DNA of 64,000 bases from Octopus vulgaris (Eukaryota), in contig OX597817.1 of assembly GCA_951406725.2 (NCBI GenBank), positions 33,914,001 through 33,978,000 on the forward strand, in the 5' to 3' direction. The notes under the pieces were generated by a model. That model was not told where the DNA came from. It saw only the letters and a list, made by a program, of their open reading frames with translations, and did no database searches. Below, piece after piece: positions 21,248-48,225 of the stretch (positions are counted from its first letter, which is position 1; each line of letters begins with the position of its first letter). The translations under genes and the position numbers were made by a program.

Positions 21248-23014
21248 ATTTGTTCCAAATGTCTATGCTCAGAGTTCAAATTCCATTGAGGTCAACATTG
21301 TCTTTCATCCTTTTGGTGTTGATATGATAAGTACTATTCAAGTGCTGAGGTCAATGGTATCAGCTAACACCTTCAACTCAAAATTGTTGACCTTGTGTCT
21401 AAAATTGTAACATCACAGGACTCGAAATTATGTTCAGTTCCCTAACATAATCACCCTACCATTTTATCATCATCATCATCATCGTTTAACGTCCGTTTTC
21501 CATGCTAGCATGGGTTGGACAGTTTGACTGGGGTCGGGGAAGCCAGGAGGCTGCACCAGGCTCCAGTCTGATCTGGCAGTGTTTCTACAGCTGGATGCCC
21601 TTCCTAATGCCAACCACTCCTTGAGTGTAGTGGGTGCTTTTTATGTGCAAAAAAAAAAAAGCACCCACTACACTCACGGAGTGGTTATATGTGTGAAATT
21701 AGTGCCTGACCCAAAAAATTAAAGTGAATTCCTAAAGTGAAATCAGGTAATGAAGAAATAGCAGCAAAATTTTCCTCAAATAGCACACTACTGTCATAAT
21801 CAAAGGTTAAGGTACATTGGATAATATGTAGCCCACAAAAGACAGAATTATCACAGTTGGAATGCTTATGATAAATAGGTCTATACAATCAGTTAACCTG
21901 GAATTGAACAGCAATGTCAACCCATGCTACTTCACTCTTTGTATCATCCAATTTGAAAATTTTTGAAATGTAGCATAAAATATAGAAACTGGAATCAAAA
22001 AGGCTATGTAAAAAAATCTTAAGTTGTCGTTCTAGGCATAGGAGTAGCTGTGTGGTAAGTAGCTTGCTTACCAACCACATGGTTCTGGGTTCAGTCCTAC
22101 TGTGTGGCACCTTGGGCAAGTGTCTTCTACTATAGCCTCAGGGTGACCAAAGCCTTGCAAGTGGATTTGGTAGACGGAAACTGAAAGAAGCCCATCGTAT
22201 GTATATATGTATGTGTTTGTATATATTTGTGTGTCTGTTTATCCCACCAACATCGCTTGACAACTGATGCTGGTGTGTTTACATCCCTGTAACTTAGCGG
22301 TTCAGCAAAAGAGACCAATAGAATAAGTACTAGGCTTACAAAGAATAAGTCCTGGGGTCGATTTGCTCGACTAAAGGCGGTGCTTCAGAATGGCCACAGT
22401 CAAAATGACTGAAACAAGTAAAAGAGTAAAGAGCAAAAGAGAGTCTATTGAAATCCTTTTAAGTACTGTTTAATAGACTTCATTCAATTTCATACATTTT
22501 CAAATTTTTTGTTATTTCTCAAAATTCAAGGCACATCAGTGCTGGTCACACATCAGTGGTGGTGACAAGGAAAAGCATCCACTTATACTCTTGGAATGAT
22601 TGGTGTAAGAAAGTGCATCCAGCTGGAGAAACCAAGCCAAACCAGACTAGAGTGGTGATACAGCTCTCCAGTTCACCAGTTCCTGTCAAACCATTTAATC
22701 ATCATCACCATCATCATTGTTTAACGTCCGTTTTCCATGCTAGCATGGGTTGGACGGTTCAACTGGGGTCTGGGAAGCCAGAAGGCTGCGCCAGGCCCAG
22801 TCTGATCTGGCAGTGTTTCTACAGCTGGATGCCCTTCCTAACGCCAATCCATGCCAACAATTAAAAATGGACGCTAAATGATGTTAATGCTGATGGATCT
22901 TTTAAAATATTGATTTTCTTTGATTACGCTCAGTCAATGTTTGATTCGGCATTGCTGGTTTATCTTTCCTCTATCACATCCAGCTGTGCATTTGCCTACA
23001 AGGTTTCCATAATA

Positions 23015-24588
23015 CGAGGTCTGATCAATAAGTATCAGGACTGTTGCCATAGTAATGAAGCTAAAGCACACAGAGTAAAGCCACTTGGCAAAAATTTACC
23101 TTGAACTCTGCTGTGCATGTGCACTAAGTTTTAACGTTCTAGCTCACTTCTGCTGTTAACAGCAGTGCTTGGAAGGAAGGTGTGTAGTGTGTGATTGTTG
23201 CATTGACTATGACAGAGACAGTTGTCATGGCAACACCTGCTCAGAGACCTGTGCAAAGTTGCAGAAAGTGTATGGAGAGGAGTGTCTGAGCCACACACAA
23301 GCATATGAGTGGTCCAGCTGTTTCCAAGATGGTCGAAAAATGTCGATATTGACGAATGTTCTAGGAGACTCACAACCAGCAGGACTGAGAAAAACATCAC
23401 AGATGTGCATATAGCTGTGAGGGGAAATTGTCGAATCCCCATCTGTGAATTATCAGAGGATGTGCAGAGTAGTTACGGTTCAGTTCAGTCCATTATCATT
23501 GAAAATTTGCGTATGAGATTCGTGTCTGCCAAGTTTGTGCCAAAACTGCTTTCAGCTGACCAAGAAGACACTCAGGTTTTAGTTGCACAAGATTTCTTTG
23601 ATTGTGTCAAGAAAGATGAAAACTTTTTAAAAACTTTGCATTGGCAAAAGACTTTGGCAAAATTTGATGCAGATTCTCTGTACAACTTTCTGTCATGGTC
23701 AATGTGATGATCACACACTACACACCTTCCTTCCAAGCACTGCTGTAAACAGCAGAAGTGAGCTAGAACATTAAAACTACATGCACATACATGGCAGAGT
23801 TCAAGGTCAAGTGCATGTGCACTAAGTTTTAACGTTCTAGCTCACTTCCGCTGTTAACAGCAGTGCTTGGAAGGAAGGTGTGTAGTGTGTGATTGTTGCA
23901 TTGACTATGACAGAGACAGTTGTCATGGCAACACCTGCTCAGAGACCTGTGCAAAGTTGCAGAAAGTGTATGGAGAGGAGTGTCTGAGCCACACACAAGC
24001 ATATGAGTGGTCCAGCTGTTTCCAAGATGGTCGAAAAATGTCGATATTGACGAATGTTCTAGGAGACTCACAACCAGCAGGACTGAGAAAAACATCACAG
24101 ATGTGCATATAGCTGTGAGGGGAAATTGTCGAATCCCCATCTGTGAATTATCAGAGGATGTGCAGATTAGTTACGGTTCAGTTCAGTCCATTATCATTGA
24201 AGATTTGCGTATGAGATTCGTGTCTGCCAAGTTTGTGCCAAAACTGCTTTCAGCTGACCAAGAAGACACTCAGGTTTTAGTTGCACAAGATTTCTTTGAT
24301 TGTGTCGAGAAAGATGAAAACTTTTTTAAAACTTTGCATTGGCAAAAGACTTTGGCAAAATTTGATGCAGATTCTCTGTACAACTTTCTGTCATGGTCAA
24401 TGTGATGATCACACACTACACACCTTCCTTCCAAGCACTGCTGTAAACAGCAGAAGTGAGCTAGAACATTAAAACTACATGCACATACATGGCAGAGTTC
24501 AAGGTCAATTCGTGCTAAGCGTCTTCACTCTGTGTGATTTAGTTTTATTACTATGGCAACAGTCTGAATACTTATTGATCAGACCATG
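23015..24588 (+). mobile_element. Non-autonomous mariner element with ~190-bp TIRs and an internal 698-bp tandem duplication; two frameshifted transposase N-terminal (HTH) remnants
   Basis: TA TSDs at 23013-14 and 24589-90. TIR cgaggtctgatcaataagtat. Peptide KLQKVYGEECLS...EW...F.DG and ..SAKFVPKLLS (WVPHEL-like). No DDD domain. Confidence 0.92.
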
Positions 24589-24987
24589 TATATCTGAACC
24601 AAATGTGGACAATAGGTATGAGGCAGTACAAGCTGTCTGTGTTCATGGTGATCTCCCTGTCTTCCAGGATACAACACCAATCAATACAACTGAGATAATA
24701 TGAAATATAGTTCCGCAAGTACATGAATCCAGTCATCTCTACAAACACCATCTGTCTTGTTTCTGGATTGCTTCCCAGACAAACAGAGGTATTTGGCTCA
24801 ACATTGTCCCCTTCTCAACAATGAGAACATATGTATCGGAGTTACCTTGTATTTTACTGTATGTGTGAACCCCATAAATGCCACTGTGGAATTACTGTCT
24901 TATCGCCATAGTACACTGGCTCTCCTACCATCATAGTGTGGGATTATGATAATCTCTCTGACAACCCACAATAAACAACAAAGAATA

Positions 24988-25720
24988 TGATATGTCCTGT
25001 ATTTTGACGATGTAACTGTGTCATCTGCTTGACTGGCCCATACGGCGTACCTCGCCGACTGACCCTGCTTGCTGTGTCTGTCCACTATTTATCAGTAGTG
25101 GAATAGCCCACTTCTCACTTGGGGGTGTCCACCACAACACCTCCCCGCTTTGTGATTTTTTTCCTTTCACACAAGATTATTATATTTTTTTTTCTTGAAA
25201 ATGCCACAGGTAGTACCAGTCTACATTGTTTACCAGTAGAGCTACTAACACATAGCAACATGACTTAAATCCTTCACATGGACTTATTATTATTATTATT
25301 ATTTTTCCTTCCACACAGAATTATTTTTCTCTTCAGAATGCCACAGGTAGTACCAGGCTACATTGTTTACTGGTAGCTCTACTAACACATAGCGACCTGA
25401 CTTAAATTCCTTCACATACTGTTTTATCAGACATTTTTTCTTCAGAATCTTTTTTCAAAAGAATTTATATATTTCTCACTGTGTGCATATTATTTTTCAC
25501 TGTGTGTGTAGTTCAGTTCTGTGTTAGTCTTATCCGCTACTGTGTGCAGTTTGACTCCTCACCACCACTGATATGTCCCGCATTGTGACGACATGACTTC
25601 ATTGTCTGAGTAACTGGCCCATATGGGATACCTCGCCAACTGATCCTGCTTGCTGTGTCTGTCAACTATTTATCAGTAGTGGAACAGCCCACTTCTCATT
25701 TGGGGGTGTCTGCCACAACA
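24988..25720 (-). mobile_element. TRIM-like miniature non-autonomous LTR retroelement (733 bp)
   Basis: Direct TG...CA repeats at 24988-25139 and 25569-25720, with 5-bp TSD gaata on both sides. On the minus strand: PBS-like TGGTGGTGAGGA and PPT AAAGCGGGGAGG. Non-coding interior. Confidence 0.8.
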
Positions 25721-27088
25721 GAATACTAAACAGTGCACTTTGTATATTCAAATGTCATACAGTCCACAGGCATAAACCTATACAATGAAACAAAAATACT
25801 AAGAATGACAGATGAGCAGGCATGCAAGGAGTATGGTTTACTTTTACAGTAAGCTACAAACCTCGCAGTCCTACTACATAAAAAGAAAAATCCCCTCCAA
25901 ACACTCAGACACAGGTACAACACTCATGAACACCCATGCCGGTCGCACATAAAAGGCACCCATCACATTCTTTAATAAAGTGGTTGGCATTAGGAAGGGC
26001 ATCCAGCCATAGAAACCATGCCACAAGAGACAATTGGAGTTTGGACAGCTCCTCAGCTGACCAGCTTCTGTGAAACCATTCAACCCATGATAGCATGGAA
26101 AATGGACGCTAAATGATGATGATGATGATGAAGAACAATACTAAAACACCATCCTAAAACCGCATGTCTCCCACTCAGCCCAGACAAACATAAAAAAAAA
26201 AAGAATATAGAAATTGTTCTGGGATCAATGACCTTATTAGCTCCAAACACCACTGATAGTAAGTACAGAAAAAACTGGATACTGAAGGAAATTCAACATG
26301 TCTAGATTGTCACACTACACCCCTACACCACACCACCCCTTCGCACACTGCATGTTAAACTGTGCAGTCTGGTTCTCAGCGAGGCAGAAACATGCCATAG
26401 GATTATTTGATCAGAGCTGATCTGGAACAGCACAACAGTAAATGCTTTTCATTAAATTTCTTCATCCTTATATTTAATACATTGTTGAAGCAATGTGTGT
26501 GTATGTGTATGGCTCCTTGTCTTAGATGTATGTGTATGGCTCCTTGCATGACAGTTGTAAGTAAGTGTCACCATCGTACAAGCAGTGTCATTCATTTTCA
26601 GTCTCCCATGGAAACATGTCCAACTAAGGGGAAATGAGAAATATTACCTCACTTGGAAACTGGCGAAATTGGGAAGCAGGAAGGGGAATCCAGAAATAGA
26701 AAATCTACCTCAACAATTTTTATCTGACCCTGCAAGCAAGGACAAGTGGATCCTAAAAAATAAAAAGAAAAATGGTGATACAACAGACTTTCACATCATT
26801 TCTGTCTACCAAATTCTACTCACAAGTTATTGGCCAGTCCATAGCTACAATAGAAGAGACTTGCCCAAGGTATCAAGCAGTATGATGAAACTATAGAACC
26901 ACATAGTTGCAAAGCAAACTACTTAAACACATAGCTGTACCTTCACCTCTGTTTAACTGTAAATGATACAAAACATAAATAGGTGCATGCAAACTGTAAT
27001 TAATCCTAACATGTCTGGAGAGGAAATTGAATACCACTTCCATAAATTAAAGGCTTACAGTCAAGCAGCTAGTTTGAGTGAATAGTCT

Positions 27089-31529: not shown

Positions 31530-31565
31530 TTCCCAACAATGTGTAATATTATGCTTTTTATTCTT

Positions 31566-32791
31566 GTAGGTAGAAACTCCATAAGATGTACCCACTGTAA
31601 GCTATGGACTCATAAAAGGTGCAGCAACATCAGAGGATGGTTAACAGGGAAAATAGTTTTTGTGTATGGAAGGTGTACAGGTAGAATACACACTAAAAAT
31701 GTACAGAAAATAAACACCATCATATGACAGGGGAAAAAACTAGAAGTAGTTGATAGCTTCTACTACCAAGGTGACTGAGTCAGTTGCAGGGGTGTATGCA
31801 TACATCCCTGCTTAGGTGCAAGAATAAGAATAGGCTGGGTAAAGTTCAGATAGCTCCTACTTCTGTTGGAAACAAAGGGCCTCTCTCTCAGAGTGAAAGG
31901 CAGATTGCATGATACCTGTGTGCAAACAGCCATGCTACACAACAGTAAAACATGGGCTGTGACCACCAAGGACAAGTGTAGGCTTGACAGAAATGAAGCT
32001 AATATGCTTCACTGAATGTGCATGCATGACAAAGTGCAAGCATCTTAAAAGAAAAGTTGGACATAAAAGGCATCAGATGTGGCATGCAAGTGAGACAAAT
32101 GTGCTGGTATGATCATGTGATGTGTATGGACAAGGACAGCTGTGTGAAGAAGTGCCTATCTCTAACAGTGGAGGGAACCTGTGAAAGAGGTAGACCCAGG
32201 AAGAATGGGAAAAGGTGGTGAAGCATGATCTTCGAATGTTGGGTCTCACAGAGGTAATGACAAGTGCCTGAGACCTTTAGCGATATGCCATGCTTGAGAA
32301 AACCTGTCAACCCAAGTGAAATAGTTGTCATGACTGATGCCAGTGTTGTGTAACAGGTACGCAAAAGAAAAAAAGCACTCTTCAAATGTTGGGCCATATA
32401 TCATGTTTGAGAAGACCCATCAAGCTAAATGAAAATCATAGTTGTGGCTGATGCCAGTGTTACATAACTGGCATGTAAAAAGCACTGCTCGAACATTGGG
32501 CCTCACAGAGGCAGTGACGAGGGTCTGAAAGCTTTGGCAATATATTGTGTTTTAGAAGACCTGTCAAGCAAAGTAAGATCATAGTCATGACTGATGCTGG
32601 TGTTATGTAACTGGTACCCATACCAGTGACATTTAAAAAGCACCCAGTACACTCTCAAAGTTGTTGGCATTAGGAAGGACATCCAGCCATAGAAACCATG
32701 CCAAATCAAATTGGAGCCTAGGGCAACTCCCCAGCTTACCACCTTTCAGTCAAACCGTCCAGCCCATGCCAGTACGGAAAATGGACGTTAA
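31566..32791 (+). mobile_element. RTE-clade LINE remnant including a PHD-like zinc finger and the ORF2 C-terminus
   Basis: GRNSIRCTHCKLWTHKRCS, then LEVVDSF..GD, RIRIGWVKFR, KGLSLRVKGRL and RGRPRK remnants with stops and frameshifts, followed by the RTE 3' UTR. Confidence 0.85.
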
Positions 32792-36404: not shown

Positions 36405-38140
36405 TAATAATAATAATAATAATGAAATTATTGTATACAGTGCTCAGGTGCACCACAACTTGTCAGAAAGTGCATATAAAGTACATGCAGTAATGTAAAA
36501 ATGTCTGGAAAGCGAACAATGTATGAGTCAGATACATGCTTGTGTGTGTATGGAGGGGAGAAAATCAGGTGTAGTGTTAGCGAATCTCAAGAAGCATGGA
36601 AGTTTTGAAGGATGCAGTGCTCCGACAACTAACAACTGATGCCGGCAGTTTGTTCCATGCTTCAGCAACTCTCAGCGTGAAAAAATGTTTCCTAAAGTCA
36701 TGGGAGCTTTGCTGTTTTCTGACTTTGTAAATATGTCCACGGGTGTTAGATGGGTGGAGTTTGAAAAGGTGCTCAGAGTTATTGTTTGTACGATGGTTGA
36801 TAATTTTATGGGTGTCTGCCAAGTCAGCTGCCAGACGTCGGAGTTTCAATGTGTCCATGCCCAGAGAAGTAAGGCGTTCAGGATATGGCAGATGCCTGAA
36901 AGAGGGTATTCTTTTGGTTGCACGTCACTGAACGGCTTCCAGACGACTGATATCCTGGGCAAGATAGGGGCTCCAGACCGGTGATGCAAATTCCAGGTGA
37001 GGTCTTACCATAGCTATATAAAGCCGCAGATAGATAGCCGGAGAACGGCTCACAAAGGATTTGGTGAGTGATGCCAAGACACCCTCAGCCTTCTTGACAA
37101 TTTTAGCGATGTGTTTTGTCCAACACAAATCACTGTCGACAAATAAAGAGGTCAAGGACAGCAGTTTATATCTGGATTTCAGATGATGATATACAGGGGA
37201 TGGCTGATTGTTCTTAGTTAGTTTCCCAAGATTTTTGTATTGCCAGTTGTTGTTGTGGGTGCAGTCTGCTCAGTCCAACTGGCATCCCTTATCCATGACT
37301 CACCAGACTTGACAAATTTCCAGATTTGCCCATCATCGCGGAGGCTAAAACTCTCCCGTGGCACAGAGTTGTGATTTAGGGAAGCTACAGATCTTAGCTT
37401 TGGGCGTACATCGGGTGGAAGGCCAGGACGTGTTCTAAAGTTGATAATGTTGTCACGCTGAGCTCTACCAGCAGCCAGATGGAATGTCCGTGCCTCAGTA
37501 AAGCCCGTAAACAACAGCCTGATTAGCCTGGGTTTGGATCCCAGTCGGCCAAGGCGGAAAGCACTTTTTGGAGGGACACAGCTGAGATCCCTAGCTGTGT
37601 TTCCAATGAATGCCTGCAGATCTACCACATCTTCCGGCACTCCGATGGCTATTAATTCATGAGTGGTTGGTTCAGCAACTCCCTCGATGCATTGAGGTTC
37701 TGTACGAGCTACAGGTAAGTTGCTGAGCAGGGCATTCCAATATGACCCTTCGCTGTGAGTTTTCGGACAGACACTGGTTCTGAGTCCTGCTACTTCACAA
37801 CTCAAAGCAGAAATCATTCATCTAATTTCTGCAACTTCTGTGCTGATGGTCGATTTCTGCTTTAGTTGGGAAGCATCAGGAGAGGAGGGCATGGCTGGTT
37901 TTTGTTCCTGCTGATGTACTTCAGCTGGAATGATCAATTTTTGTTGTCGAAGAGCAATAGGGGAGGAAGACACAGGGGGTTTAAGTTTCTGTTTTTGTTG
38001 TTCTTCAACATGAATGGCCGATTTTTGTTGCTGCTGTTGAAGAGTGACAGGGGAGGAAGACACGGGCGGCTTCAGTTTTTGCTGTTGTTCTTTATCAACA
38101 GGACTGGTTTTGGGAGACAAAGTAGTTCTTATCTCAACGT
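36405..38140 (-). mobile_element. CR1-clade LINE deletion derivative: ORF1 joined to the ORF2 C-terminus, (ATT)n tail
   Basis: ORF1 at 38120-37218 (one in-frame TGA; LIAIGVPE...AFRLG...PRLIRL). ORF2 end at 37155-36577: LYIAMVRPHLEFASPVWSPY...LEAVQ*RATK...LRRL...TRGH...FFTLRV..AWN.LP. Confidence 0.9.
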
Positions 38141-42589: not shown

Positions 42590-43540
42590 TTGTTGGACAG
42601 ATCTTCTCAAGCACAGCAGACTGCCAGTTGCTTCAGTCCTTTGTTGTCTTCTCTGTGAGGCTCAACATCTGAAGATCATTTTTCACTACTTCATCCCATG
42701 TCTTCCTAGGTCTTCCTCTTCCACAGGTTCCTTCCACATTTAGAGATCAACACTTTTTTATGCATCTGTCCTCATCCATATGCTTCACATGGCCATACCA
42801 ACACAGTCTTCTCTCTTGCAAACTATGATTAATGCCTCATCATCATCATCATTGTTCGACCGTGGTCGAGACAATGGAATTTACCATGCTACGCCAGACT
42901 TCACGGTCCATCATAGCATTACGGACGTCCTGTTGCTGGATGCCTGTATCCCTGGAGATTACATCAGGGTAGGAGAGTGTGCGCCCTCTGGTGTTTCGTG
43001 TAGATGGCTTCCAGAGGAGAAGAGTAGAAATTGCCTCGTTTTCAGCTCTACAACAATGTCCAGCAAACTGGACTCTCCTACCTTTCACAAGAGATGACAC
43101 AGGTGGTAGTTTCCCATATATTTGCATTTTGGTTGGATGATGCTTCCACGAGAGATTTTGAGCTCTCATAATTAATGCCTATTATATACCCAATGTTTCT
43201 CTCAAGACATTTACACTCTGTCATACATGCACATTAACATTGTACATCCAGTAGAGCATGCTAGCTTCATTTTTCTCAAGCTTTTGTATGTCCTTTGCAG
43301 TCACAGCTTATGTTGCACTGCCATGTAGCATAGCTGGCCATACACAGGCATCATACAGTCTGCCTTTTACTCTGAGGGAGAGGCCCTTTCTTACCAACAA
43401 AGGTAATTGCTCTCTGAACTTAACCCAGCCAGTCATTCTGCTAGCAGCTGTGCTTTGAGAGCAACCTCCACAGTTGCTAATTTGGTCACCTAGAGTAATG
43501 AAAATTATCTGCTACTTCCAAGGATCCCCCTGGACAGTTG
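42590..43540 (-). mobile_element. RTE LINE remnant containing a nested, younger RTE-like 3' fragment (42838-43170)
   Basis: Host has KGLSLRVKGRL and YSR*PN remnants. Insert reads ...RRVQFAGHC.R...AMMDREVWR with a (GAT)n tail and TSD attaatgcct (42828-37, 43171-80). Confidence 0.8.
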
Positions 43541-43619: not shown

Positions 43620-44085
43620 AACAATAAACATGCCTCCTATTGATATGACTGTCCCAATCGATATAAACATATCTGTGAAGACCTACCAAAAACTGAGCAA
43701 ATATATGGATCTTGAAATAGAAATCAGCAAAATGTGGAAGCTGAAGACTTGTTGTCATAGGAGCTCTGGGAATGATAGCAAAAGGGGCTGATTGCTACCT
43801 AACTCAGATACCAGGAAACCCCAAAATGGCAGAAATTCAAAAGATAATGCTCATGGGAACTGCTCATATCCTAAGCAAAATACTTTCTTTGTAATCTCAA
43901 GTTTTAAAACAAACATAATTTTCTTATGGTTTCTTAAACATTCTCTAGAACAACACTATGTACAAAACCAAATATATGGCACCCTAGGCATAATACCAAC
44001 ATGAACTTCCAACTTGTCTCTTGAGGTCTCTGGGTGAGACTTGGAGCCAACTTGTACAAATGTAAAGCAAAAGTCAAACATAGAA
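43620..44085 (+). mobile_element. R4/Dong-type RLE endonuclease fragment with 3' UTR, inside an (AAT)n microsatellite
   Basis: TCLLIDMTVPID...KLSKYMDLEIEISKMW...VIGALG...IQKIMLMGTAHIL, with (aat)n on both sides. Confidence 0.82.
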
Positions 44086-44209
44086 TAATAATGATAACAA
44101 TAACAACACCAACACCAGCAACAATGACGACGACGACAATAATAGTAGTAATGGTTATGGCAGCGTTGGTAGCGGCAGCAGCGGTGGTGGCGGTGGTGGT
44201 GGTGGTGGA

Positions 44210-44442
44210 CAACACATCAGAAAGTGATAAGTGCAGAATTTGTGGACACAATGGTGAAACTGTATGGCATATTACTAGTCAATGTACGCTACTAGCCCAG
44301 AAAAAATATAAGAGACGTTATGAAAATATAGCAAGGATTGTCCATTGGACACTTTGCAACAAGTATGGACTTGACAGAGCAAAAAATTGGTACGAGCATA
44401 AACCAGAAGTCATCATCAAAAATGATAATGCAAAGATCCTAT
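44210..44442 (+). mobile_element. R4/Dong-type CCHC zinc-knuckle fragment
   Basis: KCRICGHNGETVWHITSQC...YKRR...A..VHW.LC.KYG....WYEHKPE. Confidence 0.82.
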
Positions 44443-44684
44443 GTGTGTGTGTGTGTTTACATATATATATATACTTATTTAATTATATATGTGTATGTAT
44501 TATATGTATTATATACATATGTGTATGTGTGTGTAGACATGTATGTTTGTATGTTATGTATAGATAATAGAGACAGACAGAGACAGATAAATAGATAGAT
44601 AGGCGAACAGGCAAACAAACAGACGGATAGACAGATGGACAGACAGACAAACAGACAGAGAAAGAGATAGATAGATATGTACTA

Positions 44685-47638: not shown

Positions 47639-47747
47639 ATGCTTACAGCACCTAGGTTTCCCAAGCAATCACCCATCTAAGTACTAACTAGGCTCGATGT
47701 TGCTTAACCTCTGTGATCAGACAAGAACCGGTGCTTTCAACGTGATG
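47639..47747 (-). pseudogene. 5S rRNA-derived sequence (near full length, 5' ~10 nt missing), head of a SINE3-like retroposon spanning ~47570-47750
   Basis: Minus strand CATCACGTTGAAAGCACCGGTTCTTGTCTGATCACAGAGGTTAAGCAACATCGAGCCTAGTTAGTACTTAGATGGGTGATTGCTTGGGAAACCTAGGTGCTGTAAGC matches metazoan 5S (box A, IE, box C). No oligo-T terminator directly after it. Confidence 0.9.
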
Positions 47748-48225
47748 AGGAGAGAATACAAATCCTTAATTTATATGATATGAATTATCATGATATCCAG
47801 GACTTTAAAACTCTGCAAGACCTTACTCTTTTACTCTTTTACTTGTTTCAGTCATTTGACTGTGGCCATGCTGGAGCACTGCCTTTAGTCAAGCAAATCG
47901 ACCCCAGGACTTATTCTTTGTAAGCCTAGTACTTATTCTATCGGCCTCTTTTCCCAAACCGCTAAGTTACGGGGACGTAAACACACCAGCATCGGTTGTC
48001 AAGCGATGTTGGGGAGACAAACACAGACACACAAACACACACACTGAATGAACCTTCTCTAACCATGCACCTATAGTTTGGAAAGTAACAGTTGAGTGAG
48101 GGCTAGTGCCTTTGGTGTAGGATGATCCTGGATCTGTGAGGTTAGGTTTCTTCATTGGCCCCAGTTAGAGGTTCTCCTGTACCAGGGAGTCTGCATAATA
48201 GATGAGTTCACATATTTTGTACACT

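Follow-up and report, generated by a model that had tools for sequence, protein, structure and literature searches.

The window, a stretch of 64,000 nucleotides of the Octopus vulgaris genome (contig OX597817.1, positions 33,914,001 to 33,978,000), contains nine coding exons of the gene for the cytoplasmic alanyl-tRNA synthetase. They lie on the minus strand between positions 1319 and 12656 and specify residues 1–451; the first is 100% identical to the Octopus sinensis protein. On the same strand, 12.3 kb upstream of where translation begins, a real, gene-less 733-nt LTR element with a TRIM-type structure occupies positions 24988–25720, with a mariner remnant on one side and SINE-like repeats on the other. 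The remnant (23012–24591) is of a mariner-type DNA transposon with inverted ends of 205 nt (86%) and a match to a Mos1-type HTH; it holds a near-identical 698-nt tandem duplication, which is either recent or an assembly artefact. Three other frames (36577–37817 and 42849–43178 on the minus strand, 44025–44567 on the plus strand) resemble pieces of non-LTR retrotransposon proteins; none of the three gave a Pfam match. Weak matches to C1/PHD zinc fingers, under the curated cut-offs, were seen at 31530–31724 (plus strand), which could represent an exon or part of a LINE.

A preliminary sequence-only reading had described two direct repeats of ∼152 bp with TG...CA ends, bounded by an exact 5-bp target-site duplication (TSD), and both features were borne out. 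The repeats (24988–25139 and 25569–25720) align without gaps and are identical at 128 of 152 positions, and GAATA is found at 24983–24987 and again at 25721–25725. With the base composition of the window, an identical flanking 5-mer has a probability of ∼0.0013; the TSD is known for this copy alone, none being seen for other copies among the contig rows listed. A polypurine tract (PPT) adjoining one LTR and a TGG-initiated primer-binding site (PBS) beside the other had also been proposed, and are present on the minus strand: the purine-rich AAAGCGGGGAGG (25151–25140, 11 of 12 purines), and TGGTGGTGAGGA (25567–25556), separated from its LTR by a 1-nt spacer. The interior, put at ∼430 bp and non-coding, measures 429 nt, its longest stop-free frame having 54 codons. 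Five frames of at least 55 codons overlap the element, and these gave no Pfam match in a scan of 109 frames from 12.7 to 36 kb. No second copy of the LTR or the interior was found within the window. The features are as follows.

24983–24987, no strand: target-site duplication, left copy (GAATA), by sequence comparison
24988–25139, minus strand: 3′ LTR, 152 nt, TG...CA; a direct repeat, with loose ends of other copies piling up at 25139 in all four runs
25140–25151, minus strand: polypurine tract adjoining the 3′ LTR; the junction is also crossed by other contigs
25158–25279, minus strand: interior tandem unit type 1, PPT-side copy; repeat alignment, and joints 25182–25326 and 25234–25380
25302–25417, minus strand: interior tandem unit type 1, second copy; repeat alignment, 83% with gaps
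25421–25527, minus strand: interior unit type 2, ∼105 nt; present once in this copy and in tandem elsewhere, from go-back joints
25556–25567, minus strand: primer-binding site of the tRNA-Ser(GCT) type, separated by 1 nt from the 5′ LTR; pairing with the Aplysia tRNA end
25569–25720, minus strand: 5′ LTR, 152 nt, TG...CA; a direct repeat, with loose ends of other copies piling up at 25720
25667–25674, minus strand: TATA-like box with one mismatch to the general consensus, preceding the predicted start by 33 nt; 3′ LTR equivalent at 25086–25093
25638–25643, minus strand: initiator-like motif by the general consensus; transcription predicted to start at LTR position 80 (25641, or 25060 in the 3′ LTR)
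25721–25725, no strand: target-site duplication, right copy (GAATA), by sequence comparison

The definition of a TRIM in the available text of PMC10886601 and PMC6934838 includes a total length below 1000 bp. The element is shorter than this, carries TG...CA repeats in the 100–250-bp range, a PBS, a PPT and a TSD in the 4–6-bp range, does not code for protein, and belongs to a dispersed, multi-copy family (see below). Judged by its sequence, it would be a canonical TRIM, or TRIMp2 in the terms used in the accessible part of PMC10886601.

The PBS had been taken to be of the tRNA-Ser type. The 3′ end of the Aplysia tRNA-Ser-GCT is printed in the supplement of PMC10886601, as far as that text is available. 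When compared by eye with this reference, which is a sea hare rather than an octopus tRNA, all 12 bases of the PBS paired, nine by Watson–Crick and three by G–U pairs, in agreement with the assignment. The further proposal that the PBS is a CpG-decayed version of the canonical site held for two of its three departures, which are of CpG type, but not for the third, at 25562, which is not CpG decay and is private to this copy. At this site, contigs from other copies carried the fully pairing letter (10, 8, 5 and 12 contigs in four runs), and the non-window depth was 142.9 of 142.9, 46.1 of 51.3, 52.9 of 52.9 and 157.2 of 157.2. The two CpG-type sites are absent from the 40 variant sites listed of 250. 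Four sequences in the available supplement text of PMC10886601 share the 10-mer of this PBS, two of them being interiors of bivalve Helenus elements; a literature search with the 10-mer produced only unrelated papers among the 20 of 48 matches listed. No complement of at least 5 nt that might support self-priming was found between the PBS and the 5′ LTR.

The interior is modular, being built from two types of tandem unit whose number varies between copies. Two diverged repeats of ∼80 bp had been noticed in it; they are present, but as parts of longer, gapped units of ∼120–140 nt. The ungapped core of unit 1 spans 84 nt with 88% identity, and the gapped alignment of 25158–25279 with 25302–25417 gives 83%. 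Other copies have one unit 1 fewer, as indicated by joints 25182–25326 and 25234–25380 (among the 15 of 94 joints listed). Unit 2, single in the window, is in tandem in other copies, which show go-back joints 25526–25421, 25525–25434 (X3) and 25527–25422 (X13). Since unit number varies, the length of family members must vary as well, and copies of equal size were the wrong thing to expect. Between the two unit-1 copies (25187–25270 and 25324–25407), several differences fall inside short inverted repeats; at one of them the 2-nt loop is the reverse complement of its counterpart, which may reflect a micro-inversion at a hairpin. Folding of the LTRs, the interior and the units yielded no convincing conserved RNA structure (z-scores of 0.04 to –1.75).

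Other copies were sought by aligning contigs from four of 24 public runs to positions 24600–25960 at 80% likeness; the results draw on 15 of 94 joints, 24 of 609 loose ends, 40 of 250 variant sites and 32 of 2257 pieces. The stretch was matched by 537, 434, 487 and 514 contigs in the four runs, many of them breaking at the LTR end into unrelated flanks, so the element is not single-copy. Flank depth was 27, 7, 5 and 15, and peak LTR depth 4885, 1394, 1716 and 3244, respectively. The summed LTR-to-flank depth ratio was 331–626, which, since summed depth is not copy number, was taken to mean ‘many’ and nothing more; every interior bin had between 3 and >100 times the flank depth. A firmer count is provided by LTR site 25104, where 74, 71, 68 and 69 contigs differed from the window. 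Loose ends piled up at 25139 (22, 16, 13 and 19 contigs) and at 25720 (11, 8, 14 and 11), two positions that correspond to one and the same LTR end. The agreement among these loose ends was low (0.43–0.47), as results from many different, unrelated flanks. No pile was seen at the opposite, more diverged end of the LTR among the 24 of 609 loose ends listed.

Single contigs linked successive parts of the element. The path from LTR through PPT into both copies of unit 1 was crossed, with 24–49 letters differing, by X13 records 3 and 7, X6 record 20 and X7 record 27, and that from the interior through the PBS into the LTR by X3 records 10 and 13, X6 record 18 and X7 record 29. The two halves of the interior were connected by joints running from 25401–25408 to 25487–25504, which were present in all four runs, with a short side of 19–22 letters that is below the 30-letter warning threshold. 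The crossing contigs and the joints together thus trace a path from LTR to LTR without a long insert, although no contig spanning a whole second copy was among the 32 of 2257 pieces listed. Solo LTRs, the existence of which the sequence-only reading had suggested checking, may be represented by X13 record 2 and X7 record 24, in which a whole or nearly whole LTR has unlike sequence on both sides (solo-LTR-like). In X7 record 30 and X3 record 14, the LTR and PBS are followed by 602 and 352 unlike letters, respectively, which may belong to a second type of interior or to an autonomous helper; no autonomous partner was identified among the pieces listed. No empty site appeared among the 15 of 94 joints listed, a result that is uninformative. 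Metagenome contigs, prokaryote genomes and viral contigs contained no copies, as expected for an animal repeat.

The divergence of the two LTRs had been read as the mark of an old insertion, and two lines of evidence agreed with this. The K2P distance between them is 0.18, with 18 transitions and six transversions, 12 of the 24 differences lying in a CpG-type context under a loose rule; the distance is 15.8% with CpG-type sites and 7.9% without them. In addition, the left junction was found in a more distant organism (organism E), one contig of which extends from the left flank through the entire 3′ LTR into the PPT and differs from the window at 37 of 528 letters (7.0%). The flank alone differs at no fewer than 21 of 388 letters, which makes E a relative diverged by ∼5–7%; runs B, C and D had 0–1 differences from the window at this junction. 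Since the left junction is shared with E, the insertion is older than the split from E, as shown for that junction only. The LTR–LTR distance, being of the same order as the species distance or above it, agrees with an insertion before the split. The copy has likely been inert since insertion, decaying mainly at CpG-type sites. The promoter half of the LTR diverges less than the other half (6 of 79 versus 18 of 73 positions; Fisher P = 0.007). When the CpG-type differences were removed by hand, however, the contrast shrank to 4 versus 8, and so it was not counted as selection on the promoter half.

On the sense strand of both LTRs, position 80 carries an initiator-like motif, which is preceded at 33 nt by a TATA-like box and followed at +27 by a DPE-like motif. 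Initiator and TATA in this arrangement were seen in 7 and 8 of 5000 shuffles of the two LTRs, and all three motifs in 0 and 1. The test was post hoc and used general consensus motifs, and the two LTRs amount to a single observation; the positions of the TATA-like box (–33) and the DPE-like motif (+27) are each slightly off the optimum. The TATA-like box lies inside a short inverted repeat, at 25086–25107 (minus strand) and at the equivalent place in the 5′ LTR, with a 7-bp stem in the 3′ LTR; in other copies, too, coverage of the LTR is highest over 25086–25107.

The LTR might instead contain a polymerase III promoter that has worn past recognition, derived from a small RNA: from 5S, like those of Ajax and Cassandra, or from tRNA, like that of Helenus. 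A stretch of the sense strand does resemble the 5S internal control region by eye, and the only two T4 runs on that strand are both in the interior. A 5S-derived, Ajax-like LTR was, however, rejected by profile, pairwise and Rfam tests. Profiles were made from 127 loci selected by the 5S promoter pattern, which gave 90 unique full-length pieces, 47 of them close to confirmed 5S; neither the profile of these 47 5S-like sequences nor that of all 90 matched either LTR. Pairwise 5S scores were equalled by 16–141 of 200 shuffles, and against the window's own 5S copy 240–998 of 1000 shuffles scored equally well. Rfam found neither 5S nor tRNA at E up to 10. A tRNA-derived, Helenus-like LTR was likewise rejected: the B-box core GGTTC is missing from both strands, ARAGORN found 0 tRNAs, and animal Helenus elements have a 4-bp TSD according to the available text of PMC10886601, as opposed to the 5 bp here. 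A worn polymerase III promoter is thus highly improbable, and the layout of the motifs suggests that a Pol II core promoter fits the LTR better than a 5S or tRNA origin.

The 5S copy that served as a host control, the only one in the window, is decayed (47640–47758, minus strand; Rfam 62.4 bits, gathering score 38) and, with its mismatched 5′ end, is probably a dispersed pseudogene. The single window match of the 5S-like pattern was discounted as circular, the pattern having been drawn from that stretch. Of the 127 pattern loci (L001–L127), 20 were tested, and 10 of these attained the Rfam 5S score; the rest retain nothing of 5S beyond its promoter words and could be SINEs of 5S origin or something comparable. 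A retrozyme was also considered and rejected, no hammerhead family being found in Rfam at E up to 10 and no CTGANGA core in either LTR.

Taken together, the element is most likely an old, decayed copy of a many-copy, non-coding TRIM-type family of Octopus that spread with Gag and Pol borrowed from an autonomous Gypsy element. The cis-acting parts and the dispersal are observed in the DNA; transcription and the helper are inferred, and would most likely follow the usual LTR cycle, run in trans. RNA polymerase II would transcribe the minus strand from around position 80 of the LTR, and the resulting RNA would be packaged by the Gag of the helper. A host tRNA-Ser(GCT) bound at the PBS would prime the first DNA strand and the PPT the second, after which the integrase of the helper would insert the DNA and generate the 5-bp duplication. 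Interior tandem units would have been gained and lost along the way, and recombination between LTRs would have left the solo LTRs.

A different account of the size of the element is that the family consists of longer members, either autonomous or non-autonomous and kilobases long with tandem arrays, and that the 733-nt copy is a lone product of deletion or array contraction that never spread at this size. The variable unit number, the want of a listed contig across a second whole copy and the two pieces that pass from the PBS into 352–602 unlike letters are in keeping with it, and in the available text of PMC3286476 non-coding LTR elements of Culex with tandem interiors measure 1.6–14.6 kb, three Mag elements having tandem repeats in the 5′ UTR. 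The several-fold excess of LTR depth over interior depth could be added, although solo LTRs are expected to give just such an excess. Yet every interior bin exceeds flank depth, the joints between the interior halves recur in all four runs, and the interior loose-end piles listed (25407, 25421 and 25434) look like additional tandem units rather than new sequence. A lone contraction product is therefore unlikely. That the short family used a Copia or BEL/Pao helper is far less probable still: Copia likewise makes 5-bp TSDs (PMC10886601, available text) and Copia fragments were found by homology in O. bimaculoides, but all 275 structurally detected LTR elements of that species are Gypsy (PMC6238403, available text), BEL/Pao is reported to be nearly missing from cephalopods (PMC10294476, in the part available), and in Kojima's survey the PBS regions of animal Helenus TRIMs matched Gypsy only (PMC10886601, same text). 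A Gypsy helper is favoured because of the 275 Gypsy elements of O. bimaculoides and the near lack of BEL/Pao in cephalopods.

For the preferred short family with a Gypsy helper, the balance tips slightly towards a Mag-like one, by analogy with mosquitoes. In Culex, most Mag-lineage elements combine a PBS of Ser or Leu type with a TSD of 5 bp and LTRs 119–304 nt long, and tandem arrays occur in some of them and in many non-coding elements (PMC3286476, available text); the Ser primer, 5-bp TSD and short LTRs of the octopus element agree with Mag-type Gypsy, which is a likeness of layout, not kinship. A bolder proposal is that an undescribed cephalopod TRIM lineage is involved in which hundreds of old LTRs, each equipped with a compact Pol II core promoter, remain sites of transcript initiation and were retained as promoters near octopus genes, the expandable tandem interior being a Mag-dependent, non-autonomous design common to the mosquito elements. 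The copy studied here does point in the direction of the alanyl-tRNA synthetase gene, at a distance of 12.3 kb; as a whole the proposal is a speculative one that we regard as improbable.

If the LTR promoter were live, new transcripts might begin at any of the hundreds of copies, as has been shown for tapeworm TRIMs. Insertions common to octopus species could serve as clean descent markers, with the LTR pairs as an internal clock of CpG decay. Standard LTR surveys miss a repeat of this kind because it codes for nothing, and the family may well be an unnamed entry in an automatic octopus repeat library. No description of a cephalopod TRIM or non-autonomous LTR family was found in the literature as available, a search that lay outside Repbase and Dfam, and the word ‘octopus’ occurs 0 times in the accessible supplement text of PMC10886601. 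The family is thus probably undescribed for cephalopods, and ordinary in kind. With it, cephalopods would join the animals for which a TRIM family has been described; the accepted working of such elements is unchanged.

TRIM-like miniature elements are already known from plants, clams, ants and tapeworms. The view that animal TRIMs are only sporadically reported proved too narrow, since bivalves, hymenopterans, cestodes, fish and nemerteans are all on record; the available text of PMC10886601 and PMC6934838 covers hymenopterans, taeniid cestodes and bivalves, and the former places TRIMp3 elements in six animal phyla. The example from the nearest host is biv-TRIM of bivalves (PMC6934838, as far as available), which shares with the octopus element a length below 1 kb, repeats of 100–250 nt, a PPT, the lack of coding sequence, and solo and rearranged forms. 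It is set apart by its description, which gives repeats of 202–218 nt, an interior of 77–80 nt and no clear canonical PBS; in the octopus element the LTRs measure 152 nt, the 429-nt interior consists of tandem units, and the PBS is canonical and of the Ser type. The TRIMp3 elements Helenus, Ajax and Cassandra (PMC10886601, available text) are also short LTR elements of lophotrochozoans. Some bivalve Helenus elements use the same type of tRNA-Ser primer, but animal Helenus differs in TSD length, and Ajax, although comparable in its 5-bp TSD and in LTR size, has a tRNA-Leu PBS instead of Ser; moreover, TRIMp3 promoters derive from tRNA or 5S, and none such was detectable in the octopus LTR. The ta-TRIM of taeniid cestodes (PMC4558846, in the part available) resembles the octopus element in being an animal TRIM common to related species and in forming solo LTRs, but it is massively expressed and drives read-through transcripts, whereas the octopus element is known from DNA alone. 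In the arrangement of its interior, the octopus element resembles cqUNK and the Mag Gypsy elements of Culex quinquefasciatus (PMC3286476, available text), with a non-coding tandem interior of units often of 100–170 nt, a Ser PBS and 5-bp TSD commonly present, and short LTRs; with the Culex elements at 1.6–14.6 kb against 733 nt here, this is a likeness of layout only.
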